Shown: positions 6,571 to 38,488, counted from the first letter of the stretch. The stretch: 64,000 nt of DNA from Alphaproteobacteria bacterium (GCA_964291265.2 OZ219747.1:2656001-2720000), one strand, 5' to 3'. Numbers and translations are program-made. The notes: a model not told the origin generated them from the letters alone.

Positions 6571-7382
6571 TTCGCCACTCGACGCACCATCCGGCACTGG
6601 GCCATTGCCATCGCACATGAGGTTGTCACGAGGCAAGCGTTCGGCCACGCGGTGTTTGGGAAAATGCCAGCACTGAACGAGTGCAGGCGAGTCCCGGGGC
6701 AGTGCATAGTTGCCACCGTCATCCGCATCATCGCACTTTGACCGAACGCTTACAATATGTCCATGCTGAGAACTTGGCTCATCTGTGCACTATTGCCTTC
6801 ATTCAAGGAATCTAGACAGGCCGTTGTGTATTCGGGGCGTTCGCGCCCCGGCCTCATTGAAGCGATCCCTTTCTTGCCTACTGGAGCAAACCCGCTGGTG
6901 CGCTGCCGCTCCGCAAGGGGGAGAACAGGATTCAACGGGACATGCCTGCCGATTCAAGGCGCCAGCCAAGGGCAAGCGATATCGACTGGGCGGTCTCCAG
7001 CAGTTTCTCGAGGAGTTGATTGCGCTTTTCGTTGCTTGTCATCGTCGACTTTCTTGTGACGAAACACACGCATGCGACAACCTCGCCTCTGCGGTCGAAG
7101 ACAGGAGCAGCGTAAGCGTTCGGCCGTTCGGTGATGGCTGATTTTGGTTGGTTTGGGTCTTGCTGACTATCGTCTGAGAAAGAGCTGGTAAACTCGTTTG
7201 GTCTCGATTATGGTCGAGGCCATGAAGACTTTTGCCGAGACGCGCGGAGCGACACAGCAGCTGACGGGAGGTGGTGACGGCCTATGTCGGGCGTCAGTGG
7301 CCTTGTCATGCGAGGCGCCTGACTGGCGTGCGCTCTATGAGGCGGAGCGGGTTCGTGCGGATGCGGCGGAAGCGCGTATGCG

Positions 7383-8037
7383 GTGTGCCAGGCGAACTGG
7401 CGGAAGGTAGGGGGTGAAAGTCCCCTGGAACGAAGGAGTAACCAAACCACGTTTCTCCGCGAGCCGTGCGTCGGTTCCCGCGAGGGGGCAGGCGAAGCGT
7501 CGGTAGCGGTACGGATGGGCAGGGCTAATGAGCACCGAAAAAGCTATCATCCGGGGTGCCGAGGCTTTCGCATTGGTCGAAGGCAACATCGCAGGCATCG
7601 ATTTGGTGAGATGTCGGCGAGCGGTGTCAGAGAACCCATGCACGTCCGCACGCCTTCTGTTGGGACCCTGGGAGATCTTCAAACCGTCCCGCCGGTTGTG
7701 GCGGGACCGCATGGGGAAGGAGAAAACCGAAGCCTATGATGTACGGTTTGAAGAAGTCGGATGAGGCCGTAGTACCTGTGAAGGCGGCGAACAAGGAAGC
7801 GTTAGCTTCTGCGGAGTCGCTGGAGGAAAGGGCCTCAACCAAGGGGAATCCGGGACGCTAAAGCACGCACCGAACGCAGTGTCGGGCAAGCGTGCCACAG
7901 GCGGCGGATCGGATACGGGAAGCCGCAGGCTAGTCCAGTGGTTTGCCGTCCAGTACCCGAGGTAGGAGCCGGATGGATTAACGTCCACGTCCGGATCTGC
8001 GCGGGGGGTGCGCAGCAATGCGCATCCCTACCGCGTC
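7383..8037 (+). ncRNA. ORF-less group II mini-intron copy 1 (655 nt)
   Basis: 5' GTGTG; domain V GAGCCGGATGGATTAACGTCCACGTCCGGATC; domain VI with bulged A; colinear with the full-length intron except most of the RT ORF is missing; 5-nt deletion relative to copies 2 and 3. Confidence 0.9.
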
Positions 8038-8821
8038 TGACCTGCGCCGTGCGAAGAATTCTGCCCGTGCCCGTGCGGGCACATTCAAGTTTCATCTCGA
8101 CCGCACTCGTGATCAGCTCAAGGAGGCTCGCCGGGAGGTGAAGCGTGGACAGGCCCGAGCGGAGGCGCTGGAGCAGGAAAGGGACGCTCTGAAGCTCAAG
8201 AACGCTGAACAGGCGAGCGAGCTGAGGAATCTCCGCGGGACGCGTGCCAAGCACGCGACGGCGCGCTTCGGGTCGAAGAGCGAGAAACGGAAGAAGAAGG
8301 AAGGCACCGGGAACAAGCGGGGTCAGCAACCCGGCAAGAGCGGCCACGGGCGCACTCCGCGTCCGAAGCTCAAGGAGAAGCACGAACGCCATGATCCACC
8401 GGCATCGCAGCGCACGTGCCCGTGTTGCGGCGAGCCCTATGTGGCCAACGGCAGCCACGAGACCTCGATCATGGAGGTCCATGTCAAGGCTCATATCCGG
8501 CGGATTGAACGTGGGCGTTGGCGCCGTGGTTGTCAGTGTTCGTCGGCGCCTGCGGAGATCATCGCGCCGCCACCTTTGCGCTTGCTTGCGAATACCCCCT
8601 TCGGCATCAGTGTCTGGGAATGCGTGCTCTATGAGCGCTTCGCCTGCTTGCGTCCCCTGCGCCGGGTCTCGCGATGGCTGGAAGACCAGGGACTGCCGAT
8701 GGCGCCGGGAACGATCGCTGGCGGCATGAAGAAGATGACGCCGATGTTCGCGCCTCTCGCTCAGGCCATCCTCGATCATCAGAACCGGCTGACGGTGCGC
8801 CACGGCGACGAGACCAGCTGG

Positions 8822-10740
8822 GTCGCGGTAGGGATGCGCATTGCTGCGCACCCCCCGCACAGATCCGGACATGGACGTTAATCCATCCGGCTCCTACCTC
8901 GGGTGCTTGACGGTAAACCGCTGGTCCGGCCATGGGTGGCGGATGGAGACGCGCGGCCAAAGAAGCTCGGTCATGCGCTCCAATCGCTTCCAGTCAAAGC
9001 AGTGGCGCTGGGAGCGGCGGCGGATCGCTCGCAGCCATAGGCGTTGCAGCCTTTGGCGGAACGTGCGCAGCCATCGGGTCGACCCCGGAACGGCGAAGTA
9101 GTTGGACCAGCCATTGACAACTCGCCCAAGCCACATGCCGACCTCCCATATGTCGTGATGCCGTCGATTGCGAAGCACCTCCTCGATGCGCGCCAGGGTC
9201 CTTGCGACCCGTTTTGCGACCGGCTTGCGACCAAGCCTGAAGCGTCCTCTCCGGGTCTCCGTGCAGAAGTGCGTGAAGCCCAGGAAGTCGAACGTCTCCG
9301 GCCTGCCCGCCCCGCGAGATCGCCGGTTCGCCTTGGCAAACCGTCCAAACTCAACGAGACGGGTCTTGTCCGGGTGAAGGGTGAGACCAAAGCGGTCCAG
9401 CCTCTCCCGAACGTCGCGAAGGTATGTCTCCGCATCCCGCTTATGCTGGAACCCGACCACAATATCGTCCGCGTAGCGGACAATGATCGCTTTACCGTTC
9501 GGAACCTTCGGACGCCATGCCTTGTGAAACCACAGATCGAGCACGTAGTGCAGAAACACGTTCGCCAGGCAGGGGCTGACAATGGCGCCCTGAGGCGTGC
9601 CCGCACCGGTGTCGCTCCATGATCCGTCGGTCATGACGCCAGCGTTCAGCCACTTGCGGATCAGACGGATCACCCGCCTGTCGCCAATGCGATGCTCCAG
9701 GAACTTGATCAACCAATCCCTCGGGATTGTGTCGAAGTACCCCTGAATGTCCGCGTCGACTATCCAGTTGACCTTGCGCCGCTCGATCCCGAACGCCAGG
9801 GCGTCGAGAGCGTCATGCGCCCCTCGGCCCGGTCGGAACCCGTAGCTGAAGCCAAGGAACTCCACCTCATAAATCGGTGTCAGGATCACATCCACAACCG
9901 CCTTCTGGACGATCTTGTCCTCCAGTGCGGCAATCCCGAGCGGTCGTGTCCCGCCGTCCGGCTTGGGTATCTCAACCCGCCGAACCGGCGGCGCCCGGTA
10001 CGCTCCCCCACGATGCAGGCGCGAGTGCAGATCAAGCAAGCGCTCGTCCAGACCCTCGCCATACGCCGCCCACGTCACGCCGTCGACACCTGCCGAGGCT
10101 TCCTTCTTCAAACCGAAGTAGGCCGCCCGGAGCGCGTCCGGCGTAATGTGATGGAAGAGTGCAGTGAGACGCTCCTTCGGGTTCCTCTCTGCAGCTTCCC
10201 GTATCCGGTCCGCCGCCTGTGGCACACTTGCCCGACACTGCGTTCGGTGCGTGCTTTGGCGTCCCGGATTCCCCTTGGTTGAGGCCCTTTCCTCCAGCGA
10301 CTCCGCAGAAGCTGACGCTCCCTTGTTCGCCGCCTTCACCGGTCTTACGGCCCCATCCGACTTCTTCAAACCGTTCCTCATAGGCTTCGGCTTTCTCCTT
10401 TCCCTACACGGTCCCGCCACGACAGGCGGGATAGTTCGAAGACCTCCCAGGGTCCCAACAGAAGGCGTGCGGACGTGCATGGGTTCTCCGACACCGCGGG
10501 GCTCGCCGACATCTCACCAAATCGATGCCTGCGATGTTGCCTTCGACCGATGCGAAAGCCTCGGCACCCCGAACAACGGACTTTTCGGTGCTCATTAGCC
10601 CTGCCCATCCGTACCGCTACCGACGCTTCGCCTGCCCCCTCGCGGGAACCGACGCACGGCTCGCGGAGAAACGTGGTTTGGTTACTCCTTCGTTTCAGGG
10701 GACTTTCACCCCCTACCTTCCGCCAGTTCGCCTGGCACAC
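8822..10740 (-). mobile_element. Full-length group II intron (1919 nt), antisense within tnpC
   Basis: 5' GTGTGCCAGG, 3' CCCTACCGCGAC; its removal restores GAGACCAGCTGGCGCATCC as seen in copies 2 and 3; no TSD. Confidence 0.95.
8894..10381 (-). CDS. ltrA: Group II intron reverse transcriptase/maturase (no endonuclease domain)
   Basis: GVDG, IPKPDGGTRPLGI, SYGFRPGR, GTPQG, RYADD, FDFLGFTH motifs; ends just before domain V; start approximate. Confidence 0.93.
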   Translation of the reverse strand: MRNGLKKSDGAVRPVKAANKGASASAESLEERASTKGNPGRQSTHRTQCRASVPQAADRIREAAERNPKERLTALFHHITPDALRAAYFGLKKEASAGVDGVTWAAYGEGLDERLLDLHSRLHRGGAYRAPPVRRVEIPKPDGGTRPLGIAALEDKIVQKAVVDVILTPIYEVEFLGFSYGFRPGRGAHDALDALAFGIERRKVNWIVDADIQGYFDTIPRDWLIKFLEHRIGDRRVIRLIRKWLNAGVMTDGSWSDTGAGTPQGAIVSPCLANVFLHYVLDLWFHKAWRPKVPNGKAIIVRYADDIVVGFQHKRDAETYLRDVRERLDRFGLTLHPDKTRLVEFGRFAKANRRSRGAGRPETFDFLGFTHFCTETRRGRFRLGRKPVAKRVARTLARIEEVLRNRRHHDIWEVGMWLGRVVNGWSNYFAVPGSTRWLRTFRQRLQRLWLRAIRRRSQRHCFDWKRLERMTELLWPRVSIRHPWPDQRFTVKHPR

Positions 10741-12638
10741 CGCATCCAGTCCCTCAAGGCCTCGGGGCGCTCGCAGAAGGCCTGGCTGTGGACCGCGGTC
10801 AGCGCCGACTCCGTCTTCTTCTTCATCGATCCGTCACGCAGCACCCGGGTGGCCATGGTGCTGTTCGCCTCCACCGAAGGCACCGTCTTCCTTGTCTGCG
10901 ATCGCTAAGCGGTCTACAGGAAACTGGAGCGTGAGCTTGATGGCAAGGTGATCCTCTGCCTTTGCTGGGCGCACTCCAGGCGCGATGTGATCGAGGCTGC
11001 GGCAGGCCAAGAGGGGCTGGAAGAGTGGTGCGACAAGTGGCTCGACAGGATCGCGCTGATCTACACACTGAATGGGCAACGGCTGAAGCACTACGATCCC
11101 GCACGCAAGCGTCAGTCAGCGAGGTTCAATGCCCTGCAGAAGGACCTTCGTGCGGCTGTCGAGGCGCTGTTCAGGCAGGCTCAGGAGGAACTCGACGCCT
11201 TGCCCGAGGGTGCACGCGAAGCGAAGCCCTTGCGTTCCCTGATCCGTCACCGCGAGGGACTGTGCGTCTTTGTCGACCATCCCCAGGTGCCCATGGACAA
11301 CAACTTTGCCGAGAGAGCCCTCCGGGGTGCGGTGACCGCGAGAAAGCTGAGCTTCGGCTCCGACAGCGAGGAAGGCGCCGCCTTCACCGCCATCATGTAC
11401 TCGGTCATCGGCACCCTTGCCATGAACAACATCAATGTTCGGCGCTGGCTTCATGAGTGGCTTGAGGCCTGCGCGCAGAACGGCGGCAAGCCGCCGGATG
11501 ACCTCGACCCGTGGCTGCCATGGTCGATGACCCCGGAGCGTCGAAGGGACCTCATGGAACCGGGGTGATCGAGTGCCGTTACGACGGCCGTGACTTCACC
11601 GCGCACGAGATGGCGCTGTTGCGCTCCCTGATCACCCAGCACCCCACCCGTGCGGCCATCGCCCGCGCCTTCTGCCGCGAGACCGGCTGATACAAGCCCG
11701 ACGGGGCCTCAAGAACATGATGGCGAATGTCGCCTTTCTGGCCATGCACCGCGACGGCCTCATCACCCTGCCGCCACCCCAACGACGAGCAACCCGACCC
11801 GGACCCATCGTCTTCGGACCCAACAGCGAACCGCCACGTGGTGCGCCTCCCAAACGCATCCTCAACCGGTGAATATCACCAACAATCACCGCGTGGCCGA
11901 ACGCTTACACCCTGGCGACATCTTCTTCTGGAATGACCCCTACAACAGTTCAGGCGGCATCGGCCACATTCCGGACCTGTGCACGACGTTGCCGATCTTT
12001 TACGGCGAGCGCCTGATCGGATTCAGCCAGGTGTTCGGCCATCACGACGATGTCGGCGGCGCCGTCCCGGGGAGTCTGCCGGCCGATGCCACCGACATGT
12101 GGACCGAGGGACTGGTGGTGCCGCCGATCAAGATCTACGAGAGGGGCAGGATCAACGAGGCGGTGTTCACGATCATCTCGCGCAATTCGCGCCTGTCGGA
12201 ACACCTGCGTGGCGATCTCGATGCTGAAATCGGTGCCGCTCGGCTGGGTAGTCAGCGCGTCGTGGCGATGGCGGAGCGTTATGGCGTGGAGGCTCTTGAA
12301 GCCGCCTATGACGCCATCATCGGGAATTGTGCCGAGACCATACGCCGCGAGTTGCTCCCCAGGATACGGGACGGCGTCTACACATGGGAGGACTACATCG
12401 AGAACGACGGTGTTGAGGGACCCAAGATGCATGCACTGCGTCTGACGATGACCAAGATCACCGACAGGATCATGCTCGACTTTACCGGTACGTCCGAGGA
12501 AGCGAAGGGGCCGATCAACTGGCCCATTGACGGGTGTAGTGTAAGCGTTCGGCCGTTCGGTGATGGCTGATTTTGGTTGGTTTGGGTCTTGCTGACTATC
12601 GTCTGAGAAAGAGCTGGTAAACTCGTTTGGTCTCGATT

Positions 12639-17070
<4,432 letters not shown>

Positions 17071-17660
17071 TCGAGTGCCGTTACGACGGCCGTGACTTCA
17101 CCGCGCACGAGATGGCGCTGTTGCGCTCCCTGATCACCCAGCACCCCACCCGTGCGGCCATCGCCCGCGCCTTCTGCCGCAAGACCGGCTGGTACAAGCC
17201 CGACGGCGGCCTCAAGAACATGATGGCGAGTGTCGCCTTTCTGGCCATGCACCGCGCTACACAGGCGCCGTCTACAAGGCGTCGGGTTGGATCCATGTCG
17301 GCACCACCAAGGGGCGCGGACGCTACGATACGCACAGGAAACTCGACAAACCAAAAAAAGGACATCTGGCTGAGGCCTCTCCGCAAAGACTGGAAACTCA
17401 TCCTCAACCGGTGAATATCACCAACAATCACTGCGCGACCGAACGCTTACGGTGTAGTTCTCGTATGGCGAAGCCAAGTCATTGATTTATCACGGTTGTG
17501 CGGTCGCGATGGAGCGGCGAAAACGGGGTTTCGTGACAATTGCCCGTTTCTGGGCCGGATTTTGTCACGACAGCAGGGCTTGGCGGTGGATGCGGGAACG
17601 CTCCGCACCGCAAGATGCGATATGATGCTAGCTTGAAACCACAACATCAGGAGCGCTCCC

Positions 17661-19049
17661 ATGTCAGTGTCACAGCTTCGGCCTTCCGCGTCCATCGATC
17701 TTCTCGGCTTGCCGCCTCGGGTTGTCGAGGCGGTCACGCAAGTGACCGCGGTGTGTCATCGACAGCTCGGTTCAGAGCGCTCTGCCGAGGCTTTCGAGGA
17801 AGCGGAGCGGCGGGTGCTTGAGAGCGTGCACGCGCTTGGCTGCGAGATCCTGGGTGCCTGTGCCGAGGCCCGGGACGACGGTGCGCCCCGGATCGAACGG
17901 GACGGGCAGAACTGGTTCCGTGTGGCGCCGACGCCGAAGACGATCATGACCTCGCTCGGCCCGGTGACCTTTCGGCGTGCGCGCTATCGCACCGGCGGGC
18001 ACTGCCGGTCGCTGATGCCGGTGGACGAAAGCCTGGGCCTCGTCGACGACGACCTGACACGGCCGGCGGCTCAGCTTGGGCTGATGATGATGGTCCACTG
18101 CACGGCGCGGGAAGCGGAGGCGTTCTTCGGCAAGCTCGGCGCCATGACGCCGTCTGTGAGCACCTTGCAGCGCTTGAGCCTGACCATGCAGGAGCGTTGG
18201 GAACGTCTCGGCCCGCAGGCCCTGGATGGCATCCGGGAAGCCGAGGACATTCCGCAGGACGCGGTCACCGCCTCGGTCTCGCTCGACGGCGTCATGGTGG
18301 CGCTGCGGGCCGGCGAGGACGGCCGTAGCGAGGCCTGCTGGCGCGAGGCGGCCTGTGGCACAGTCTCCTTCCACGATGCCGAGGGTGAGCGCCTGAAGAC
18401 CGTCTATCTCGGCCGCATGCCCGAGCGCGGCAAGTGCACGCTGAAGGCGCAGCTGGCAAGCGAGGTCGCGCATATCAGGCGCAAGCGTCCCGAGATCAGG
18501 ATCAGCGCCATCGCCGACGCCGCCGCCGACAACTGGACCTTCCTCTCTGGTCTTGAACCCGAAACCGAGGTGATCGACTTCTGGCATGCCTGCGAGCATC
18601 TGCGCGTGGTGGCCGACCATGCAGCGGCGCCCCACTGGTTCGAGAAGTACCGCGAGATCCTGCGTCACGACCCCCGCGGCATCGACAAGGTGATCCGGGC
18701 GCTGCGCCACCTTCGCGACACCGCCAAGCCGGCGGGCCGAGCCGACATCGACAGGGAACTGGCCTTCTTCCGCAAGCATCGCCACCGCATGCGCTACCAC
18801 GCACTGAAGCAACAGGGGATCGCCATCGGCTCGGGACTTGTCGAGGCAGCCAACAAGACCCTCGTCACACAGCGCATGAAGCGCTCCGGCATGCGCTGGC
18901 GCATCGTCGGCGGACAAGCCGTTCTCACCTTCCGCGCCCTCATCAAATCCGGCCGCTTCGAAAGTGCGTGGACCGCCATGATCGAGGGCGACGACGCACC
19001 AGCCAACGACAACATCAGCCCACATCACACCCAGGCGCTGGCCGCATGA
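17661..19049 (+). CDS. ISKra4/ISLre2-like DDE transposase
   Basis: SLDGV, ADAA..NW, DFWHACEHL, GSGLVEAANK..RMKRSGMRW motifs. Confidence 0.85.
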   Translation: MSVSQLRPSASIDLLGLPPRVVEAVTQVTAVCHRQLGSERSAEAFEEAERRVLESVHALGCEILGACAEARDDGAPRIERDGQNWFRVAPTPKTIMTSLGPVTFRRARYRTGGHCRSLMPVDESLGLVDDDLTRPAAQLGLMMMVHCTAREAEAFFGKLGAMTPSVSTLQRLSLTMQERWERLGPQALDGIREAEDIPQDAVTASVSLDGVMVALRAGEDGRSEACWREAACGTVSFHDAEGERLKTVYLGRMPERGKCTLKAQLASEVAHIRRKRPEIRISAIADAAADNWTFLSGLEPETEVIDFWHACEHLRVVADHAAAPHWFEKYREILRHDPRGIDKVIRALRHLRDTAKPAGRADIDRELAFFRKHRHRMRYHALKQQGIAIGSGLVEAANKTLVTQRMKRSGMRWRIVGGQAVLTFRALIKSGRFESAWTAMIEGDDAPANDNISPHHTQALAA

Positions 19050-20497
19050 GATGAAACAATGGAACTAAGTCCATAACTTAAGACCATAACATAACTGCCA
19101 TACTAGACTCACACCCCCATTGACTATGCCGACGGCAAGTTCGTGCGCAAATGGATGGGTCCGGTCCTGCGCTCGCTCGCTGCAACACCGGAACGAGCGG
19201 CAGAAATCGACATGAACGAGGGTGTGCTCGATATCATCGAGGTGAAGTTTCCGCCAAAGGGTACCCTCGTCACGCCGAATTTCGGCAAGGCGACGGGTCT
19301 GAGGTTCTTCCCGCTGCTGCGGTCGCTCGGCATCTTCGCGGCCCTGCTCGCGAAGGCCACCTCGGGGCGCATGCCGGCAGACCATGAGACCATTCGCATC
19401 TGGGGTCTTCACGGTGGTCGGATCGGCCACGACTTCTTCCTGTTCCGCGAAGTTCTCGGAGGCGGTGGTCCGGGACGCCCCTGGGCCGACGGCAGCGATG
19501 TCGTCCATGTCGTGCCGAACTCACGCAACTTGCCGGCCGAGTTCTCCGAGACACGTTATCCCGTCATCATCGAACCTCTCGGACTGGCAACTGATTCAGG
19601 CGGAGCGGGGTTCCGTCGCGGTGGTCTCGGATACGACAAGCGCGTCAGGGTGCTCGGGGATTGCGAGGCTCTCTCCAATGCCGACCGTTCGCTTATCCAC
19701 ACCTACGGTGTCAATGGCGGCATGCACGGTGGCAACTATGCGCTCGAGATGGAGGACTCGGCGGGGGGCCGACGCACACTTGCGGGCATGGACGACCGGG
19801 TTCCCGTCGGCGCGGGTTCTGCCATCCGGATCCGAACGAATGGCGGGGGCGGTTGGGGCGACCCGTTGGCGCGGGAACCGGCAAGGGTGTGTCACGACGT
19901 TCAGTGTGGTCTCGTGTCCGAATCGGCAGCCCACGATGACTACGGCGTCGTACTTGTGCTGCGGGGACGGCGGTACGCGGTTGATGAAGACGGGACCGGC
20001 AGGCTTCGGGAGCGCATGAGAGCCGAGCGGGGACCGCTACCCATGTTCCGCCGAGGTCCCTACTTCGACGACATGAAGCGCCGCAACGCGATAAGCCGCC
20101 CCGAGGGTCTGGAAGATCCGGACGAGGGCTGGTTTGCGGACGGCGCACTGCCGGAGGCGGCGCAGTGAGTGGCTCACCGACGGACCCCGGTCGTCGCCGA
20201 CTCCCCGTTGCCACGTCGGAAGACTGCAGGATGCGCTGTTGCGCGGCGCTGGTCGGAGCGATGGACATCGGACGGCCAATCGGCGTCATGCCGAAGGACG
20301 TTATCGCGGCGCCACACATCCAGATGCCGCGGCATTGACCATGACGGCGAGCGTTGCCGTGCCGTGCACCGGAAGGCAACCGCGCGAACCCCGATCATCC
20401 CTGCGGGCCGACCGGAGGTCGGGGGATCGAGGTCAGTGGTGACGCGATACGGGGCGCCTGTCCTGATCAGCATCTGCGAACGGGAGCAAGAGACATC

Positions 20498-21280: not shown

Positions 21281-21761
21281 TCCGAGGAGTTGGATCAGGA
21301 AGAGCGGTGACGGACTTCCGGTTCGGCGTTATCCTGATGTTGATGGCTGCATAGAACGGCGGGATTTCGGCGATTTGCCGCGCTTTGTCAGGGTCGTGTT
21401 TCTTCCCTGTTGTCAGGTCCTATTGTCACGTCCTGTTGTCGTGGTTTGAGTGTTCGGCTGGTTGTCTCCCCGAGCGCCGCCGTCTTTTCCTATTGTCGTT
21501 TTGGTCCGGTTCGGGTTCCGTCGACCTCTGCTTCGGTCTTGGTGACGGTTGCCGGGAGGGTTCCGGTTCCGAGGCACTCGCGGGATTGTTTGTCTTCCCT
21601 GTGGGCGGGTCGCGTTGTCCGGTCCCGGGGCGGCGTTTTTGCCGCCGCCCCGGGTGGATGCTAGATCGGCATCAAGAGAAAGAGCGATGCGATGCCGGGC
21701 GGAGTTGTGACGCCCCCCGGCGCAGCACCCGGACGAGCCGGTCACGGGGGACCGAACTCCC

Positions 21762-22292
21762 GTGTATTGTCGAGCCATTTTGCGTCCGGGTCCACCCCCG
21801 CTCTCGAGACGGATCGTGTGCACGACGGGACGACTGTTCAACTGCAAGCGGTGTCAGCGGCAGGTTGTTCTCTGCCGGTCGTGTGACCGGGGGCATGTGT
21901 ATTGCTCCAAGGAGTGCAGGGAATCGTCCCGGATCGAGCGGCGCCGCGCGTCGCGTCGTCGCTACCAGAGCACGCTGAAGGGCCGTGAGACGGGCCGTCA
22001 CCGCCAGCGGCGTTATCGGCTCCGCAAGGCGGAGGAGGCGCGTGCGTTGAAGGCCAGGGCGGCGATGGTTGCCGAGATCATGGGCACGCAGACGTCTGCT
22101 GTGGTGCTGCTTGGCGACGTTCCGGCGGTGTCTGGAGACGCCGGTTCTGAAGAAATCGTTACGGACCACCCTTCCCGACTGCTGCCGACCTCCCTACCTG
22201 CGGTTGTGAAGGCGCGAGAGCGGCGCGAATCGCCGCTTCGGTGCGCCCGGTGCGGACGGGTCGTGACGCATGTGGTGCTGAGGGACCTGTGA
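21762..22292 (+). CDS. Cys-rich putative Zn-binding protein upstream of istA
   Basis: CKRC..CRSCDRG..YCS..C, basic helix, C-terminal CARC; frame conserved in both copies; start uncertain. Confidence 0.65.
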   Translation: MYCRAILRPGPPPLSRRIVCTTGRLFNCKRCQRQVVLCRSCDRGHVYCSKECRESSRIERRRASRRRYQSTLKGRETGRHRQRRYRLRKAEEARALKARAAMVAEIMGTQTSAVVLLGDVPAVSGDAGSEEIVTDHPSRLLPTSLPAVVKARERRESPLRCARCGRVVTHVVLRDL

Positions 22293-22324
22293 TGCGGCGT
22301 TGAGGAACCAAAGGGAGGGAGTTC

Positions 22325-23818
22325 ATGGCGATCGACGAGGACACGCGGGCGACGATCGTGCGGCTGTCGCGGGCCGAGGGCTGGGCTGTGGGGACGATTG
22401 CCCGGCATCTCGGCGTGCACCACGGCACGGTGACGCGGGCGCTCAAGGCGTCGGGGCAGGAGCGGCGGCCGCGGGCCAAGCTCATCGACCCCTTCGTTGC
22501 CTTCCTCGGGGAGCGTCTTGAGGCGTCGCCGGACCTTCCGGCCAGCACGCTCTGGCGACAGGTCGTGGCTCTGGGCTACCGCGGCGGCGAGGATCACTTC
22601 CGTCACGACCTGCGCCGCCTCGGGCTGAGGCCGGTGAAGAGGCCCGAGCCGTCGCTGCGGCTGAGCTTCCTTCCGGGCGAGCAGGCGCAGGTTGACTGGG
22701 CCGAGTTCGGGAAGGTCCGCATTGGCCGGGCGGAGCGCAGGCTCATGGGGCTTCTCGTCACCCTCAGCTACTCGCGCCAGACTGTCCTGAGCCTGTTCCA
22801 CGACGCGCGGATGGCCAGCTTCCTGCAAGGCCATGTCGAGGCTTTCGCGGCATTCGGGGGTGTGCCGCGGAGGCTTCTGTACGACAACCTGAAGAGTGCC
22901 GTGGTGACGCGCCGCGGCAAGGCGGTCACCTATCATCCGATGCTGCTCGGCCTCGCGGCCCACTATGCCTTCGAACCGAGCGCCGCCTGGCCCAGGAGCC
23001 CGCAGGAGAAGGGCCGCGTGGAACGCCGTGTGCGCTTCGCGCGCACCGGGTTCTTCGCCGGGCGCGACATCACGGTCCCGCTCGGCGAGCTCAACGCCGC
23101 AGTTCGGGAGTGGTGCTTCGGCGCCGCCGCGGAGCGGCCCTGGCCGGACGACGACAGTCTCCTGGTGCGGGACGCCTTCGCCCGGGAGAGGGAGCACCTG
23201 ATCGTCCTTCCCGCCGATCCCTTCCCGCATCACGAGGTCCGCCCGGTGCGCATCGACAAGACCTGCCACGCCCGCTTCGACACCAACGACTACAGCGTTC
23301 CGGGTAGCTTCTCCAAGGCCCTGCTGACGCTGGTCGCCGACCGCGACGAGGTTCGCATCCTCGACGGCGCCGACGAGGTCGCGCGCCACCGACGCTCCTA
23401 CGACAGGAAGCAGGCCGTCACCGATCCGGAGCATGCCAGGGCGATCGCCGCGGGCAAGCGGCGGGCCCGCTCCATGAGCGTCCGCGACCGGGTCCTGCGC
23501 ACCGTGCCGCGGGCCGAGGAGATGCTGGCGCGCGCCGGGACCAACGGGCGCAACGTGGCCTCCTGCGCCCGGATGCTGGAGACGCTTCTCAACGCGCACG
23601 GCGCCGACGCTCTCGACCGGGCTGTCGCCACGGCGCTGGAGCGCGGCTCGTGCCACCCCGAAACCGTGCGCGTCATCATCGAGGAGCGCCGCCGGGAGCA
23701 GGGCCTGCCGCCCCTCAGCATCGCCGACGACGGCCGCGGCGGCCGTGGCACGACGCCGCGGGGGACCGCTCTCGACGCCTACGACAGGCCCGAAGCCAGC
23801 GCCAGGAACAAGACATGA
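22325..23818 (+). CDS. istA: IS21 transposase IstA
   Basis: N-terminal HTH, PGEQAQVDW, LSYSR, YDNLKS, KGRVE, YSVP. Confidence 0.95.
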   Translation: MAIDEDTRATIVRLSRAEGWAVGTIARHLGVHHGTVTRALKASGQERRPRAKLIDPFVAFLGERLEASPDLPASTLWRQVVALGYRGGEDHFRHDLRRLGLRPVKRPEPSLRLSFLPGEQAQVDWAEFGKVRIGRAERRLMGLLVTLSYSRQTVLSLFHDARMASFLQGHVEAFAAFGGVPRRLLYDNLKSAVVTRRGKAVTYHPMLLGLAAHYAFEPSAAWPRSPQEKGRVERRVRFARTGFFAGRDITVPLGELNAAVREWCFGAAAERPWPDDDSLLVRDAFAREREHLIVLPADPFPHHEVRPVRIDKTCHARFDTNDYSVPGSFSKALLTLVADRDEVRILDGADEVARHRRSYDRKQAVTDPEHARAIAAGKRRARSMSVRDRVLRTVPRAEEMLARAGTNGRNVASCARMLETLLNAHGADALDRAVATALERGSCHPETVRVIIEERRREQGLPPLSIADDGRGGRGTTPRGTALDAYDRPEASARNKT

Positions 23819-24516
23819 GCGAGCTCAGGGAGCGTGCCCGGGCGCTCGGCCTCCACGGGCTCGTCGAACGCTGGGACGAGGTCGCCGGGACCGCATGGAT
23901 CGAGGAGGTGGTCAGCGGCGAGGAACAGGCCCGCAGGGCCCGCAGCCACGAGCGCCGCCGCGCCGCGGCGCGGCTGCCCGCCTTCAAGCCCCTGGCGGAC
24001 TTCGACTGGACATGGCCGCGCGACATCAGCCGGGCTCATGTCGAAGCGCTCCTCGGCCTCGGCTTCGTCGACCGTGCGGACAACGCCGTGCTCGTCGGCG
24101 GGCAGGGCACCGGAAAGACCATGATCGCCGCCAACGTGGCTCACCAGGCCCTGCTGCACGGCCACACCGTCCGCTTCGAGAAGGCGCCGGAACTGCTCGA
24201 GGCACTCGCCGAGACCGTCTCGCGCAGCGAGCTGCGCCGCCGCCTCGCGATCCTCGCCAGGCCCCGCCTGCTCGTCCTCGACGAAATCGGCTACGTGACC
24301 CTCGAAAGCCACCATGCCGACATCCTCTACGCCATCGTCTCGCGGCGCTATCAGCGCCGCTCGACCATGGTCACGACAAGCCTCGCCTTCGCCCAGTGGG
24401 ACCGCGTCTTCCCCAGCGCCTCCGGCATCGCCGGCACCGTCGACCGGCTCATGCACGACGCAACCCTCATCTCCATCGACAGCGACTCCTGGCGGCTCAG
24501 GCGTGAAACCCGATAA
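23815..24516 (+). CDS. istB: IS21 helper ATPase IstB
   Basis: FDW, GGQGTGKT Walker A, LVLDEIGY, DRLMH; overlaps istA stop. Confidence 0.95.
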   Translation: MSELRERARALGLHGLVERWDEVAGTAWIEEVVSGEEQARRARSHERRRAAARLPAFKPLADFDWTWPRDISRAHVEALLGLGFVDRADNAVLVGGQGTGKTMIAANVAHQALLHGHTVRFEKAPELLEALAETVSRSELRRRLAILARPRLLVLDEIGYVTLESHHADILYAIVSRRYQRRSTMVTTSLAFAQWDRVFPSASGIAGTVDRLMHDATLISIDSDSWRLRRETR

Positions 24517-25396
24517 ACCCCGCCGCGTCGACTTCGACGCCGTCAAGCGCATGCCGTTCGAACGCATCGCCGCCGACTGGGGATACGTCCGCGACGAACA
24601 GGCCTCGACACGCGCCAACCCCGTCCTGTGCGCACCCGGCCTGCCGAAGCTCGTCACGAAGTGCCTCAACAACGGACACTGGGTCTACTTCAACACCCAG
24701 AACGATGAAGACAACGGAACCGTCATCGACTTCATGCTCAACCGCGGACTGGCCTTCGCCGACATCTGCACCCGCTTCGCAGCACCCGACGCCGCGCCAC
24801 GCGACTTCCGCAGCCTCTGGGCCGCGGCAACGCCCGATGCGGCCCCGGACTGGCTCACCGGGCGCGGCATCCTCCCGGAGACCCTCGACACCTGCCGCCC
24901 CCTGGTCCGCCGCGACCACAACGGACGCGTCCTCTTCGCCCATCGCAACAGGAAGCGAAAGCTCACCGGCTTCGAGATCGGTCCCCCCGACGGACCGAAA
25001 CGCTTCGCCACCGGTGGAACCCGAAGCCTGTTCGCCGTCCGCGCCGGAACCGCCGCGGACCTCGAGGCCCTCGTCATCACCGAAAGCGCCGTCGACGCCC
25101 TCAGCCTGGCCCAGATCGACCAATGTCCCCCCAGCCACGCCTTCCTCTCCACCGCCGGGGCACCCTCGCGAAGACAGCACGAACAGATCAGCCTCGCCGC
25201 AAGCAGCCTGCCCAACGTCAGGACCATCGTCCTCGCCCAGGACCACGACGAGGCCGGAGAGCGACAGGCCGAAACCCTGCGCAAAAAGATGAAGCTCCCC
25301 TCCCACGTCTCGTTCCACAGACGCAGACCGCCGGAAAACGCCGACTGGAACGACGTCGTCAACGCCAGGACCAAAGAACCACAAGCGAGATCATGA
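24503..25396 (+). CDS. DUF3991/Toprim-domain cargo protein
   Basis: D.GTVIDF, WLTGRGI, TGFE, VITESAVDALS, AQDHDEAG, DWND Toprim motifs. Confidence 0.8.
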   Translation: MKPDKPRRVDFDAVKRMPFERIAADWGYVRDEQASTRANPVLCAPGLPKLVTKCLNNGHWVYFNTQNDEDNGTVIDFMLNRGLAFADICTRFAAPDAAPRDFRSLWAAATPDAAPDWLTGRGILPETLDTCRPLVRRDHNGRVLFAHRNRKRKLTGFEIGPPDGPKRFATGGTRSLFAVRAGTAADLEALVITESAVDALSLAQIDQCPPSHAFLSTAGAPSRRQHEQISLAASSLPNVRTIVLAQDHDEAGERQAETLRKKMKLPSHVSFHRRRPPENADWNDVVNARTKEPQARS

Positions 25397-25422
25397 CCAC
25401 GTCCGTCACAAGGAGACCACTC

Positions 25423-25713
25423 ATGCCCCTCACGCCCGCCGAAAAGCAGCGGTGATACCGGGAACGGCGCAAGGCCGGCATCCCTCCCGTCCACACCCCA
25501 AAGCACCGTGACCGGCGCTCGCGACCGCAACGCTGGAACGACGCCGTGGCCGAACTGCGCTCCCTGCAGGACGAATGGCGTGACCACCTCGACAGCATCC
25601 CCGAAAGCCTCCGTGACACGCCTTACGGAGAACGCCTGCAGAGCGTCGCCGATGCCGACATCGAGGCCCTCGAGGACATCGAACCGCCACGCGGCTACGG
25701 AAGGGATACGTGA
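25423..25713 (+). pseudogene. 96-aa cargo gene with premature stop (CGA>TGA at 25453-25455)
   Basis: Otherwise near-identical to the intact copy at 32394-32684. Confidence 0.85.
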
Positions 25714-26530
25714 TCCCGCAAGACCCTTGAACGCGGTCACGCGTTACCATCCAGGAATGAGAACGTCTCACCCCGACGCGCCGCTCAGCCTCCCCGGGAA
25801 ACACCCGGGCCGTCCAAACGACACCGCATCACGAGACTGCCGCAGCCTCTGAGCCGCAGCGACGCCCGATCCGCCGCCGGGCTGGCTCACAGGTCGCAGC
25901 ATCCGCCCGAAAACACTCGACGCCTGCCGCACCCTGCAGGACGAATGGCGTGACCGCCTCGACAGCATCCCCGAAACCCTCCGTGACACGCCTTACGGAG
26001 AACGCCTGCAGAGCGTCGCCGATGCCGACATCGAGGCTCTCGAGGACATCGAACCGCCACGCGGCTACGGAAGGGACACGTAATCTCGCAAGACCCTTGA
26101 ACGCGGTCACGCGTTACCATCCAGGAATGAGAACGTCTCACCCCGACGCGCCGCTCAGCCTCCCCGGGAAACCCCCGGGCCGTCCAAACGACACCACATC
26201 ACGAGACTGCCGCAGCCGCTGAGCCGCAGCAACGCCCGATCCGCCGCCGGACTGGCTCACAGGTCGCAGCATCCGCCCGAAAACACTCGACGCCTGCCGC
26301 ACCCTGCGCCGCCGCAACCGCAACGCACGCAGCCTCTTCGCCCAGCGCAACAGAAACCGTCAGCTCTCCAGCCTCGAGATCGTCCCGCCCGACGAACCAC
26401 GACGAGGACGGAGAACGCCAGAACGAAACCACGCGCAAAAGCCTGAAGCTCCCCTCCCACATCACGTTCCACAAACGCCGAACGCCAGAAAACGCCGACC
26501 GGAACGACATCGTCAACGTCAATGCAAGAC
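25563..26530 (+). repeat. 370-bp-period tandem duplication plus decayed Toprim-gene fragments
   Basis: 3' half of the cargo gene and its downstream flank repeated (stops at 25711 and 26081); pieces resemble 24800-25370. Confidence 0.8.
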
Positions 26531-27018
26531 CAATGGGATCCAACAATAGGCAGAAAACAAAGACCGGGCGGACCTTCGTCCAATGCCGCACGTTCTCCTG
26601 TCGTGGTCACCCACTCACACGATCAGCGCCCAAAAGAGCGGTTCTCCGCCAATATCCCGCCGTTCTAAATCGCCGCCGACACCTGAGACCTCGCACTGGT
26701 CCTGGCCGCCATGTGGGAGCGAACGTCATCGCAGAGGATGCACGGGCTGACAGCCACCAACTCTGACGTGGCCCGGTTGCGGCCGGGCCTGAAGGAAAAG
26801 GTGGCGGCAGCCGGCCCGGTTTCCAGGGCAGGCGTTTCGATGAAGCCGGGAACAGGCGGGCGACACGACGGCGGTGGAGTCTGGCGGCGCCCGGAGCGGA
26901 AGTCCGGATGGCGCCGTACAGTTCTGGCGCGTTCCATCGAAGGTTTGCAACGTCCGGGACCGGTACCGACATGTTCCCGCACCGACACTGATCATGCCTT
27001 CAGACCGTAGCTGCAACC

Positions 27019-28656
27019 TTGGATAGTGTCGTGGACTTCGAGCTGATCGCCATTGCATTCGGAGACGTGGCATGGATCGCGATGGCCTTCGTGCTGGGCC
27101 TGCTGTCCAGAACCGTCGGGCTGCCGCCCCTGGTCGGCTTCCTGGTTGCCGGGTTCGTGCTCAACCTGCATGGCATGGCCGGCGGGGACATGCTGCGGAA
27201 ACTGTCGGATCTGGGCATCACCCTGTTGCTCTTCATCGTTGGCCTGAAGCTCAACCTTCGGGTGTTCGCGCGGCCGCAGGTATGGGCCGTGACCGGGCTG
27301 CACATGGCCATCATCGTGCCGCTCTTCGCAACGGCCATCTACGCCGCCGCCGCTCTCGGGGTGCCCTTCCTCTCCGACCTCGACCTTGCCCGATCTCTTC
27401 TGATCGCCTTCGCACTCAGCTTTTCCAGCACCGTGTTCGTCGTCAAGGCGCTGGAAGACAGGGGCCAGACAACGGCGCTCCACGGCCGGGTTGCGATCGG
27501 CATTCTCATCGTGCAGGATCTGGCCGCCGTCGTCTTTCTCGCCATCTCCACGGGGAACCTGCCGACCTACTGGGCCCTGCTGGCCCTTCTCGTCTTTCCG
27601 ATTCGCCCCTTCCTGACCGCCCTGCTTCAGCGGGTCGGCCACGGAGAGCTCATGGTCCTCTATGGCTTCCTGCTTGCCCTGGGTGGTGCGCAGCTGTTCG
27701 AGCTCGTCGGCCTCAAGGGTGATCTCGGCGCACTCGTGTTGGGCGTTCTGATCGCCAATCATGCCAAGGCCAACGAGATGGCGAAGGCCATGCTCGGCTT
27801 CAAGGACCTTTTCCTTCTCGCCTTCTTTCTCTCAGTCGGCCTTTCGGGACAGCTGACCCTGGAGACGTTCATGATCGGCGCCGTGATCACGCCGTTCGTG
27901 CTGTTCAAGTCGGCCCTGTTCTTCGGACTGCTGACCGCGTTCAGGCTTCAGGCACGCACGTCGCTTCTGGCATCGTTCAATCTCGGCAACTTCAGCGAAT
28001 TCGGGCTCATCGTCACCGCCATCGGAGTCGCCCGGGGTTGGATCGACACCGACTGGCTGATCGTGGTCGCGGTCGCGCTTGCCCTGTCCTGCGCCATCTC
28101 TTCCGGGCTCAACATCACCGGAGAACGCATCTACACGCGGCACAGGAGCATGTGGAAGCGCCTGCAACGCTCCAGCCTTGTTGCCGACGATCGGCCGCTT
28201 GATATCGGCGCGGCGACGATTGCCATCATCGGCATGGGCCGTATTGGATCGGGGGCATATGACACCATGCGTGAACTGCATGGAGAAACCGTCGTTGGCG
28301 TGGATTTCGATCAGGCCACGGTCGAGCGTCGCCGGACCGAAGGGCGAAAGGTGTTGTTGGGCGACCCTTGTGACGCCGAGTTCTGGGATCGCGTTCAGAG
28401 CGCCCACACATTGGAACTGGTCATGCTGGCATTGCCGAGTCTTGCCGCCAACCTTGCCGTGATCGACCAGCTCAAGGCGGCCTCGTTCACCGGCCGGGTT
28501 GCCGCCACGGTGAGGTTCCAGGACGACATCGAACCACTTGAGGAGGCCGGCGCCTCGACCGTCTTCAACGTCTACGCGGAAGCAGGTTCGGGGTTCGCCG
28601 CGCATGTGGCCGGGGACATGCCGGCCGTAAGCGTTCGGCCGTTCGGTGATGGCTGA
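27019..28656 (+). CDS. CPA2 cation:proton antiporter (KefC-like) with TrkA-N domain; last codons supplied by the IS66 end
   Basis: LPPLVGFL.AG, LLLFIVGL, FSST, ILIVQD, FFLSVG, GMGRIG. Confidence 0.9.
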   Translation: MDSVVDFELIAIAFGDVAWIAMAFVLGLLSRTVGLPPLVGFLVAGFVLNLHGMAGGDMLRKLSDLGITLLLFIVGLKLNLRVFARPQVWAVTGLHMAIIVPLFATAIYAAAALGVPFLSDLDLARSLLIAFALSFSSTVFVVKALEDRGQTTALHGRVAIGILIVQDLAAVVFLAISTGNLPTYWALLALLVFPIRPFLTALLQRVGHGELMVLYGFLLALGGAQLFELVGLKGDLGALVLGVLIANHAKANEMAKAMLGFKDLFLLAFFLSVGLSGQLTLETFMIGAVITPFVLFKSALFFGLLTAFRLQARTSLLASFNLGNFSEFGLIVTAIGVARGWIDTDWLIVVAVALALSCAISSGLNITGERIYTRHRSMWKRLQRSSLVADDRPLDIGAATIAIIGMGRIGSGAYDTMRELHGETVVGVDFDQATVERRRTEGRKVLLGDPCDAEFWDRVQSAHTLELVMLALPSLAANLAVIDQLKAASFTGRVAATVRFQDDIEPLEEAGASTVFNVYAEAGSGFAAHVAGDMPAVSVRPFGDG

Positions 28657-28724
28657 TTTTGGTTGGTTTGGGTCTTGCTGACTATCGTCTGAGAAAGAGC
28701 TGGTAAACTCGTTTGGTCTCGATT

Positions 28725-31169
28725 ATGGTCGAGGCCATGAAGACTTTTGCCGAGACGCGCGGAGCGACACAGCAGCTGACGGGAGGTGGTGACGGCCTAT
28801 GTCGGGCGTCAGTGGCCTTGTCATGCGAGGCGCCTGACTGGCGTGCGCTCTATGAGGCGGAGCGGGTTCGTGCGGATGCGGCGGAAGCGCGTATGCGGTG
28901 TGCCAGGCGAACTGGCGGAAGGTAGGGGGTGAAAGTCCCCTGGAACGAAGGAGTAACCAAACCACGTTTCTCCGCGAGCCGTGCGTCGGTTCCCGCGAGG
29001 GGGCAGGCGAAGCGTCGGTAGCGGTACGGATGGGCAGGGCTAATGAGCACCGAAAAAGCTATCATCCGGGGTGCCGAGGCTTTCGCATTGGTCGAAGGCA
29101 ACATCGCAGGCATCGATTTGGTGAGATGTCGGCGAGCCCCGCGGTGTCAGAGAACCCATGCACGTCCGCACGCCTTCTGTTGGGACCCTGGGAGATCTTC
29201 AAACCGTCCCGCCGGTTGTGGCGGGACCGCATGGGGAAGGAGAAAACCGAAGCCTATGATGTACGGTTTGAAGAAGTCGGATGAGGCCGTAGTACCTGTG
29301 AAGGCGGCGAACAAGGAAGCGTTAGCTTCTGCGGAGTCGCTGGAGGAAAGGGCCTCAACCAAGGGGAATCCGGGACGCTAAAGCACGCACCGAACGCAGT
29401 GTCGGGCAAGCGTGCCACAGGCGGCGGATCGGATACGGGAAGCCGCAGGCTAGTCCAGTGGTTTGCCGTCCAGTACCCGAGGTAGGAGCCGGATGGATTA
29501 ACGTCCACGTCCGGATCTGCGCGGGGGGTGCGCAGCAATGCGCATCCCTACCGCGTCTGACCTGCGCCGTGCGAAGAATTCTGCCCGTGCCCGTGCGGGC
29601 ACATTCAAGTTTCATCTCGACCGCACTCGTGATCAGCTCAAGGAGGCTCGCCGGGAGGTGAAGCGTGGACAGGCCCGAGCGGAGGCGCTGGAGCAGGAAA
29701 GGGACGCTCTGAAGCTCAAGAACGCTGAACAGGCGAGCGAGCTGAGGAATCTCCGCGGGACGCGTGCCAAGCACGCGACGGCGCGCTTCGGGTCGAAGAG
29801 CGAGAAGCGGAAGAAGAAGGAAGGCACAGGGAACAAGCGGGGTCAGCAACCCGGCAAGAGCGGCCACGGGCGCACTCCGCGTCCGAAGCTCAAGGAGAAG
29901 CACGAACGCCATGATCCACCGGCATCGCAGCGCACGTGCCCGTGTTGCGGCGAGCCCTATGTGGCCAACGGCAGCCACGAGACCTCGATCATGGAGGTCC
30001 ATGTCAAGGCTCATATCCGGCGGATTGAACGTGGGCGTTGGCGCCGTGGTTGTCAGTGTTCGTCGGCGCCTGCGGAGATCATCGCGCCGCCACCTTTGCG
30101 CTTGCTTGCGAATACCCCCTTCGGCATCAGTGTCTGGGAATGCGTGCTCTATGAGCGCTTCGCCTGCTTGCGTCCCCTGCGCCGGGTCTCGCGATGGCTG
30201 GAAGACCAGGGACTGCCGATGGCGCCGGGAACGATCGCTGGCGGCATGAAGAAGATGACGCCGATGTTCGCGCCTCTCGCTCAGGCCATCCTCGATCATC
30301 AGAACCGGCTGACGGTGCGCCACGGCGACGAGACCAGCTGGCGCATCCAGTCCCTCAAGGCCTCGGGGCGCTCGCAGAAGGCCTGGCTGTGGACCGCGGT
30401 CAGCGCCGACTCCGTCTTCTTCCTTATCGACCCGTCACGCAGCGCCCGGGTGGCCATGGTGCTGTTCGCCTCCACCGAAGGTGTCGTCTTCCTTGTTTGC
30501 GACCGCTACGTGGTCTACAGGAAACTGGAGCGTGAGCTTGATGGCAAGGTGATCCTCTGCCTTTGCTGGGCGCACTCCAGGCGCGATGTGATCGAGGCTG
30601 CGGCAGGCCAGGAGGGGCTGGAAGAGTGGTGCGACAAGTGGCTCGACAGGATCGCGCTGATCTACACACTGAATGGGCAACGGCTGAAGCACTACGATCC
30701 CGCACGCAAGCGTCAGTCAGCGAGGTTCAATGCCCTGCAGAAGGACCTTCGTGCGGCTGTCGAGGCGCTGTTCAGGCAGGCTCAGGAGGAACTCGACGCC
30801 TTGCCCGAGGGTGCACGCGAAGCGAAGCCCTTGCGTTCCCTGATCCGTCACCGCGAGGGACTGTGCGTCTTTGTCGACCATCCCCAGGTGCCCATGGACA
30901 ACAACTTTGCCGAGAGAGCCCTCCGGGGTGCGGTGACCGCGAGAAAGCTGAGCTTCGGCTCCGACAGCGAGGAAGGCGCCGCCTTCACCGCCATCATGTA
31001 CTCGGTCATCGGCACCCTTGCCATGAACAACATCAATGTTCGGCGCTGGCTTCATGAGTGGCTTGAGGCCTGCGCGCAGAACGGCGGCAAGCCGCCGGAT
31101 GACCTCGACCCGTGGCTGCCATGGTCGATGCCCCCGGAGCGTCGAAGGGACCTCATGGAACCGGGGTGA
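28725..31169 (+). CDS. tnpC: IS66 transposase TnpC copy 3; exons 28725-28897 + 29558-31169 (594 aa if spliced)
   Basis: In-frame after removal of the mini-intron; no internal stops. Confidence 0.88.
28898..29557 (+). ncRNA. ORF-less group II mini-intron copy 3 (660 nt)
   Basis: GTGTG start, domains V and VI present, RT ORF internally deleted. Confidence 0.92.
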
Positions 31170-32393: not shown

Positions 32394-32684
32394 TCACGTA
32401 TCCCTTCCGTAGCCGCGTGGCGGTTCGATGTCCTCGAGGGCCTCGATGTCGGCATCGGCGACGCTCTGCAGGCGTTCTCCGTAAGGCGTGTCACGGAGGC
32501 TTTCGGGGATGCTGTCGAGGCGGTCACGCCATTCGTCCTGCAGGGCGCGCAGTTCGGCCACGGCGTCGTTCCAGCGTTGCGGTCGCGAGCGCCGGTCACG
32601 ATGCTTTGGGGTGTGGACGGGAGGGATGCCGGCCTTGCGCCGTTCCCGGTATCGCCGCTGCTTTTCGGCGGGCGTGAGGGGCAT
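32394..32684 (-). CDS. 96-aa conserved hypothetical cargo protein (intact)
   Basis: AAGGAG RBS; homolog of 13202-13492. Confidence 0.8.
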   Translation of the reverse strand: MPLTPAEKQRRYRERRKAGIPPVHTPKHRDRRSRPQRWNDAVAELRALQDEWRDRLDSIPESLRDTPYGERLQSVADADIEALEDIEPPRGYGRDT

Positions 32685-32710
32685 GAGTGGTCTCCTTGTG
32701 ACGGACGTGG

Positions 32711-35782: not shown

Positions 35783-35814
35783 GAACTCCCTCCCTCTGGT
35801 TCCTCAACGCCGCA

Positions 35815-38290: not shown

Positions 38291-38488
38291 TTGCCGCGGG
38301 AGCGGAGCTGGGGCGGCTGTACGGGCAGGCCGCGACCAAGCGTCTGCCCGCACTTCTGAACACGAATGATCCCTTTGCCTCCGACGACCCACAAACCGGC
38401 CGCTGCAAGGCTTGAGAGATGTCTTCACCTACATGGATATCGATGTACAGCTGTGGAGGAAGTGGCACGAGCCCGATTCCCGCCATTA

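Follow-up and report, generated by a model that had tools for sequence, protein, structure and literature searches.

Sibling group II introns on opposite strands of one IS66 family in an alphaproteobacterial genome, and the likely retrohoming of the ORF-less form

ORF-less group II introns driven in trans are known from T. elongatus, where one family is located at a conserved IS site (PMC2882425, PMC4424553 and PMC8643678). Retrohoming of endonuclease-lacking (En-minus) introns into the lagging-strand template is known for RmInt1, including its ORF-deleted forms in trans (PMC1802570; PMC4615759; survey in PMC8919778). In RmInt1, exon ligation amounts to just 0.07%, and the intron nevertheless spreads well (PMC3035460); a U at the penultimate position was one of the mutations most harmful to its second step (PMC4238363). 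The latter paper argues that splicing limits the host IS. A splice-gated transposase is therefore not new, since the RmInt1 papers already state that the transposase of the host IS requires splicing and that this limits the spread of the IS.

We have analysed a window of 64,000 nucleotides (the whole stretch, C2:2656001-2720000) within the two-contig genome (G000) of an Alphaproteobacteria bacterium; positions without prefix are those of the window. Three IS66 copies of the window carry an ORF-less group II intron (hereafter the mini), and one of them also carries a full-length sibling. Our main reading, to which we give a probability of about 0.8, is that the mini (14 of 27 scored IS66 copies of the genome) has spread in place by retrohoming, likely using the RT/maturase of the sibling, and has silenced most copies.

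IS66 copies and introns of the window

The IS66 copies are identified by DDE_Tnp_IS66 (PF03050) and NF033517 matches above cut-off, by GTAAGCG terminal repeats and by 8-bp target site duplications (TSDs). The uninterrupted element has 2,224 bp and contains only tnpC and a short downstream ORF; it is not of the three-ORF form with tnpA and tnpB. We take this single-ORF form to be the ISBst12-like subgroup. The three copies lie on the plus strand. Copy 1 (7112-11908), of the single-ORF tnpC type, is the only copy with both introns and has no TSD. Its tnpC is divided into exon 1 (7210-7382, i.e., 57 codons plus 2 nt, the last 15 nt being IBS2/IBS1 of the mini), exon 2 (8038-8821) and a remainder (10741-11568) with a premature in-frame stop at 10906-10908. 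Copy 2 (12541-17450), with a divergent backbone, is located within a hydantoinase B gene and has the TSD GGTGTAGT. Copy 3 (28627-36842) has the TSD TGCCGGCC, its right end being displaced by a 5.3-kb IS21-like insertion (31449-36776); its tnpC (28725-31169) is intact except for the mini.

The mini is an ORF-less group II intron with IIB-type exon recognition, 660 nt long when intact. It begins with GTGTG at 7383, 12812 and 28898, in the sense of tnpC and at the identical codon in the three copies. Rfam RF02005 recognizes domain I at 7417-7636, 14812-15036 and 28932-29156 on the plus strand, with 147-170 bits against a gathering score of 49, and a further domain I is matched at 10482-10706 on the minus strand; a GUGYG 5' end and a group II domain I are thus both present. 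For RF00029 the gathering score was not reached in the window, and domain V of the mini is called from its sequence, its fold and the 89-94% identity that it shares with introns bearing an RT. This domain has the AGC triad, and domain VI has a bulged A located 8 nt from the 3' end (sequence and fold). The fold of the mini is stronger than that of shuffled sequences (z -4.8, 0/20 shuffles). Relative to the full-length intron (1,919 nt), domain IV has lost 1,259 nt and 40 substitutions are found at other positions; the IEP (intron-encoded protein) start region is retained, in a remnant frame that stops after 41 codons. The mini derives from the full-length intron family via this deletion and has its own exon-binding sites.

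The 3' end of the mini is UC, that of the sibling AC. Since the penultimate base is A in the sibling and in 3/3 aligned relatives, the U of the mini is derived. The UC end departs from the 3' AY of group II introns; this does not exclude group II membership, because RmInt1 (CC) is a known exception. Pairing with the exons comprises 5/6 pairs for EBS1, three contiguous pairs plus two for EBS2, and A:U for EBS3 at all three target variants. EBS2 (GCU:AGC) and EBS3 (A:U) suit the three target variants of the mini and not those of the sibling; the reciprocal is also true.

In copy 1 the mini (7383-8037, plus strand) has 655 nt, a 5-nt deletion near 7620 in domain I having broken five pairs. Its exon-binding sites are EBS2 at about 7541-7548, EBS1 at 7569-7574 and EBS3 at 7629; domain V covers about 7966-7998 and domain VI about 7999-8035, with the branch A at 8030 and a 3' UC. 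In copy 2 (12812-15437, plus strand) an IS110 element splits the mini after nt 9, leaving 12812-12820 and 14787-15437. In copy 3 (28898-29557, plus strand; EBS2 29056-29063, EBS1 29084-29089, EBS3 29149) the mini has its intact 660 nt and is identical to 12 other uninterrupted genomic copies. In other words, 13/13 uninterrupted 660-nt minis of the genome are identical, and their backbones differ by up to 4%.

Excision of the mini (7383-8037; 28898-29557) yields the junction AEARMR/DLRR and a TnpC of 594 aa in copy 3 and 601 aa in copy 2; exactly this junction is found in intron-free genomic IS66 copies. Several other splice shifts also keep the frame, and the GUGUG..UC boundaries alone recreate the natural empty allele. 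Exon 1 encodes the native N-terminus: 16/16 aligned TnpC homologues, picked from 426 hits for their high N-terminal coverage, have their start no more than about 6 residues away from one common Met.

An earlier note on this DNA is borne out on several of these points: the ORF-less intron in sense orientation at one site of the three IS66 copies (GTGTG starts and RF02005 matches), its loss of ~1.26 kb of RT ORF with domains V and VI retained, the TnpC rebuilt by its removal, the native N-terminus in exon 1 and the perfect TSDs of copies 2 and 3. The length of ~660 nt that it gave to the intron in all three copies is right for copy 3 and not for copy 1. The restoration of a full-length TnpC by splicing, which it also expected, does not apply to copy 1, because the full-length intron is antisense and the stop at 10906-10908 ends the frame (374 aa). 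Copy 1 is dead regardless of splicing, with a damaged mini, an antisense full-length intron, a stop and unmatched flanks.

The full-length sibling (8822-10740, minus strand) is antisense in tnpC, at a second site (site 2), and is the likely RT/maturase donor. Its RT/maturase (8894-10381, minus strand, 495 aa) contains RT and X domains, i.e., only RVT_1 and GIIM by Pfam; the domain searches gave no hit for an HNH endonuclease domain in this protein. This absence and the fork co-orientation of 14/15 full introns are those of En-minus introns (classes C, D, E and F). From the N-terminal motif, class E is a candidate. The loop of domain V is read as 4 or 6 nt, the IIE/IIF feature being 5 nt, and the best plasmid matches to the RT (55-59%) bear no class label. 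The sibling is 94% identical to the mini, 11/11 uninterrupted full copies encode the intact 495-aa RT ORF, and the genome has 16 TIGR04416 matches over cut-off. As the mini has no RT and so close a sibling has intact ones, help of the sibling maturase in trans is likely; by the precedent of the systems described, the sibling IEP would bind and mobilize the mini. Two full-length introns (C2:936304 and 2129349) are interrupted around nt 240-250 by long insertions of 13-17 kb, and the left ends of these insertions differ. Over window positions 28600-31460, contigs of runs X3 and X5 fuse an AC-type intron 3' end directly to an intron 5' end; in X3 these joints have a high summed depth. They would represent head-to-tail tandem introns or circles.

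Other features of the window were recorded. The hydantoinase B/oxoprolinase gene (11900-20168) is broken by IS66 copy 2 and by an ISKra4-like element (17661-19049); next to IS66 copy 1, the 5' part of this gene is absent. Two inverted 5.3-kb IS21-like copies (istA/istB; 21338-26681 and 31449-36776) have a Toprim-domain ORF, the second one being inserted within the right end of copy 3 of IS66. The IS66 right ends (11565-11908 and 17067-17450) hold the start of an ORF resembling the DruA/PF14236-domain ORF at 37455; DruA/PF14236-related regions are also listed at 37455-38369 and 38882-39751, and PF14236 is fused to some TnpC homologues (P0047, P0107). A MITE-like element of ~120 bp (~6635-6753) has IS66-type GTAAGCG ends and dozens of genomic relatives. 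At 52653-59163, a 771-aa ORF is followed by a 1,408-aa DEAD-box helicase-like ORF and preceded by a possible toxin-antitoxin pair at 51184; judging from the translation, 52653-59163 may be a defence locus.

Intron occupancy, fork orientation and spread

The genome census counted 30 IS66 elements, whole copies or large pieces of them; both sites could be scored in 27, and 3/30 have no scorable site 1 (that of the mini); three partial copies were called full-intron-positive by adjacency. Among the 27 scored copies, the mini alone is present in 13, the full intron alone in 10, both introns in one and neither in three (Fisher p=0.0003). Site 1 is thus occupied in 14 copies and empty in 13. Eight mini-bearing copies would be intact once spliced, and the remaining six carry further lesions. 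TSDs were found for 11/14 mini-bearing copies and for 6/9 full-only copies checked for them. Two of the three copies with neither intron, C2:927480-929703 and C2:181806-184069, have an uninterrupted 594-aa tnpC and TSDs. In run X1, where the single-copy depth is 54, the mini-type contig has a depth of 846 and the empty junction 445, which fits ~16 minis and ~8 empty sites. These depths argue against an assembly artefact, with the restriction that X1 is possibly the source sample and is not independent.

Origin and terminus were placed from the GC skew (minimum 0.72 Mb, maximum 3.29 Mb) and from dnaA at 0.65 Mb. With reference to the replication fork, the overall orientation of IS66 is 17:13. 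Of the introns, 13/15 mini sites (12/14 within IS66) and 14/15 full introns are co-oriented with the fork. The mini occupies 12/16 co-oriented vs. 2/11 head-on IS66 copies (p=0.006), and the full intron 2/17 co-oriented vs. 11/13 head-on copies (p=1e-4). These effects hold across all 9 combinations of origin and terminus (p<=0.007). One of the two head-on minis is located within 50 kb of the skew minimum. Empty head-on sites have the same -25..+10 sequences as occupied sites; three co-oriented copies are still empty, two of them having perfect sites.

The mini is found in 15 copies in two unrelated targets, as precise insertions at EBS-matched sites for which precise empty alleles exist. The second target is a host gene for a double ABC ATPase, split by the identical mini ~68 codons before its stop (L021:2539-3198, i.e., C2:2219838-2220497); the precise intron-free allele of this gene is present on an 8.4-kb contig of run X3, whereas G000 has none. 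It must be noticed that the identical mini sits between flanking alleles that differ within 6-25 nt of both junctions.

The state of the intron does not follow the ancestry of the transposon. On the backbone tree, which took in 24/31 elements and left out 7, the mini label needs 9 changes (mean of shuffled labels, 7.9), and a single clade is rejected (p-AU 4e-8); IS66 backbones are mosaic, and gene conversion weakens this test. Nearest-neighbour and distance permutation tests gave no significant clustering of intron state (p 0.14-0.51). Backbones that are 2 and 4 nt apart bear opposite introns in opposite orientation, e.g., 1142975 (full, head-on) and 2684627 (mini, co-oriented), with 2/2,223 nt different. 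Pairs of mini-bearing backbones 0-2 nt apart were also found (1940216/3877612; 374818/2684627; 857243/2577263, the last in opposite orientations). These near-identical pairs and the two head-on minis make a few co-transpositions possible.

These distributions can be accommodated as follows. The mini would be transcribed inside the mRNA of tnpC (or of the ABC gene), and the sibling maturase would help to excise it, before reverse-splicing into single-stranded DNA at the fork. The lagging-strand template would be the only good target, because the sibling RT has no endonuclease. The mini site is on the sense strand of tnpC and the sibling site on the antisense strand, and therefore the mini would enter co-oriented IS66 copies, and the full intron those lying head-on. 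Both introns would cut the transposase output, the antisense one irreversibly and the mini leakily.

Related intron sequence is present in 11/32 genomes of the family, the introns examined being full-length; among the matches listed for these 32 genomes, none spans the deletion junction of the mini. A metagenome scan yielded one IS66 locus, intron-free. Contigs of run X3 share this deletion junction except for a single changed base, and a variant ORF-less intron (L022:835-7170, i.e., C2:2242635-2248969) has the same deletion and UC end with different EBS1 and EBS2; since both share the junction, the ORF-less lineage predates the burst of this strain. The variant lies in a partial duplicate of the ABC gene and holds another group II intron (5.7-kb insertion) at ~nt 392; in two other copies, the start of this inner intron is at the identical position.

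Transposase supply and alternative explanations

Homing needs excision, therefore some ligated tnpC mRNA is likely. Having no RT of its own, the mini likely depends on the sibling. Splicing could rebuild TnpC and yet would probably be a minor source, the derived 3' UC end predicting poor exon ligation. The two uninterrupted copies are the likely source of most TnpC, and splicing would add only little. With 8 spliceable vs. 2 intact copies and equal transcription assumed, parity is reached only at 25% splicing; at 0.07-1%, splicing would account for 0.3-4% of TnpC. The RmInt1 figures are those of another intron class and another host. The mini likely dampens the transposon rather than serving as a built-in switch. 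A joint of 28897 to 29558 in runs X1, X2 and X5 was considered as a sign of splicing and rejected, as it is an intron-free DNA allele or indistinguishable from one. Run X2 has no mini-type letters at the deletion junction, an absence that is uninformative. A scan for sigma-70-like promoters in one intron-free IS66 copy gave 0 sites.

The earlier note had proposed an intron fixed in a composite IS66, moving with it and gating the transposase by maturase-dependent splicing. Several observations are in line with this proposal, i.e., the exact restoration of the frame, the conserved exon 1, the dependence on splicing of 8/10 copies still able to encode TnpC, the TSDs of 11/14 mini-bearing copies and the few near-identical mini-bearing pairs. 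However, an intron absent from 13/27 copies is not fixed, and two of these copies are fully intact; intron-free tnpC copies elsewhere, which the note itself had counted against its reading, thus exist with TSDs. Co-transposition would randomize orientation as for IS66 itself (17:13), yet 12/14 minis are fork-co-oriented. Moreover, monophyly of the mini is rejected, 5/5 related IS66 loci in G010, G012 and L039 are intron-free, and no contiguous deletion junction is present among the matches listed for 32 other family genomes. TSDs date the insertion of the IS only and therefore do not prove co-transposition; they also surround 6/9 copies killed by the antisense intron, and the intron tracks fork orientation, not ancestry. 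What was found is not a fixed intron-transposon chimera (IStron-like or splice-gated IS), with 13/27 copies lacking the intron and no monophyly. The trans maturase of the proposal is kept as likely, but the gate is not supported, as two uninterrupted tnpC copies exist; taken as a whole, the proposal is improbable.

An inert mini spread by gene conversion or recombination at the DNA level, and not by its own retromobility, is favoured by the mosaic backbones, the non-consensus 3' UC end and the recombinant-looking copy 1 with its unmatched flanks. Such a process would not be expected to produce a replication-strand bias, nor does it explain why the identical mini is bordered by alleles that differ within 6-25 nt of its two junctions, why it also occupies an unrelated gene, where the site shares the IBS motif, or EBS changes that fit the target; we consider it very unlikely. 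The intron might also be near-neutral, with a truncated 543-aa TnpC made from an in-frame ATG in the hairpin of domain VI (8018-8020, plus strand), the start chosen by automatic gene callers. The frame is open from 8018/15418/29538 and includes the whole DDE domain, but this ATG straddles the loop and stem of the hairpin and the G run upstream is paired (-32.8 kcal/mol for the fragment), so the start is predicted to be occluded. The structure comparison used the mini's own fold and hence favours the mini. The product would also drop 58 N-terminal residues that are conserved in homologues, and this explanation appears the least credible of all. Retrohoming of the mini in trans thus remains the preferred reading.

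The IS110 element and comparison with described systems

The IS110 element in the mini of copy 2 (12821-14786, minus strand) has 1,966 bp including one AG/CT core copy. Its transposase (13522-14469, minus strand) is of the DEDD type, with NF033542 above cut-off. Upstream of the transposase, the non-coding end has a strong fold (z -7.2) and holds a predicted bridge RNA (14470-14680, minus strand), with both target guides (14592-14585 and 14568-14561) in one internal loop and donor guides at ~14518 and ~14493. The guides UUUCGCCU and UGUGCCAG correspond to one half each of the intron 5' end, on either side of the CT core, in the geometry of IS621; both were recovered in 4/20,000 shuffles. Throughout the genome, 27/27 perfect 13-nt targets are intron 5' ends. 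The four identical IS110 copies of G000 (C2:2594643, 2668821, 3032862 and 2593457) are located in the mini of copy 2, in two full-length introns at nt 9 and at one near-match site. The dedicated off-switch that had been seen in this insertion is not sustained, nt 9 being hit also in two full-length introns and in only 1/14 IS66 minis: IS110 parasitizes the intron family and is no IS66-specific switch. In 32 relatives no clear IS110-intron junction was found, and 5 two-mismatch hits are about the control count. At C2:3954248 a related IS110 end is found at the same position in another intron variant. Deletions of 1-5 nt at the IS110 target occur in intron 5' ends at C1:226533 and C2:1456212, 1430298, 1454993 and 2242635; they are possibly excision scars or escape variants.

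Through its predicted bridge RNA for the conserved intron 5' end, IS110 would parasitize both introns. A wider scheme is tentative and, to us, rather doubtful: through divergence of their exon-binding sites, the autonomous intron and its ORF-less offspring would cover both strands of IS66, so that a new copy could be plugged by one of them in either orientation to the fork (24/27 copies are plugged), the UC end would keep the offspring mobile and limit ligated tnpC mRNA, IS110 would be programmed against both 5' ends, and this three-tier chain of hyperparasites would set the transposase supply.

Across the ~30 copies that a single IS has in this near-complete genome, the orientation to the fork is by itself enough to predict which sibling intron is present. 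The census provides genomic evidence for retrohoming in trans of a naturally ORF-less intron at replication forks, and it warns that TSDs around an intron-bearing IS are no sign of co-transposition. The IS110 case offers a testable RNA-guided element specialized on a retroelement. Neither the partition of one IS between two introns on two strands nor an IS110 guided to an intron 5' end was found in the literature searched (few subscription papers).

IS621/IS110 (Durrant et al. 2024, PMC11208160) has, as here, a CT core on the transposase strand, a non-coding end upstream of the gene, and target and donor loops in which the left guide reads as the top strand and the right one as its complement. 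Unlike in IS621, the predicted target of the IS110 described here is a group II intron, at its conserved 5' end; the main text of PMC11208160 does not contain the word "intron".

Sr.md.I1, also of group II, interrupts the transposase ORF of an IS66, as here, but contains an ORF (PMC4615759). Sr.md.I1 and RmInt2 share the strand bias of the introns described here. RmInt2, located in the inverted repeats of ISRm17, can find its target on either IS strand, as is the case here, but it too contains an ORF (PMC4615759); one intron covers both orientations via two inverted repeats, whereas here two introns use two sites.

RmInt1, in ISRm2011-2 of Sinorhizobium meliloti (PMC1802570), is likewise En-minus and located in a transposase gene, shows a lagging-strand-template bias as it spreads among IS copies and has deletion-ORF forms mobilized in trans. 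Its splicing is needed for the transposase and is a proposed limit of the IS, and its penultimate base is a pyrimidine (PMC3035460, PMC4238363). Unlike the mini, RmInt1 encodes its own IEP (its ORF-less forms are engineered), belongs to class D and has a host IS other than IS66.

The mini also resembles the TeI3 introns (families F3-F6), which are driven by the TeI4 IEPs, with F4 in ISEL1 (Mohr et al. 2010, PMC2882425). TeI3 introns and the mini have a single ORF deletion in domain IV, ORF remnants on each side and an extra lesion that kills the remnant frame (in the mini, the stop after 41 codons). Both have their own EBS set, proliferate beside ORF-containing siblings and use a conserved IS site. 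The TeI4 IEPs have an endonuclease domain, whereas the sibling RT has none, and, unlike TeI3 and TeI4, the mini and its autonomous sibling target opposite strands of one IS family.
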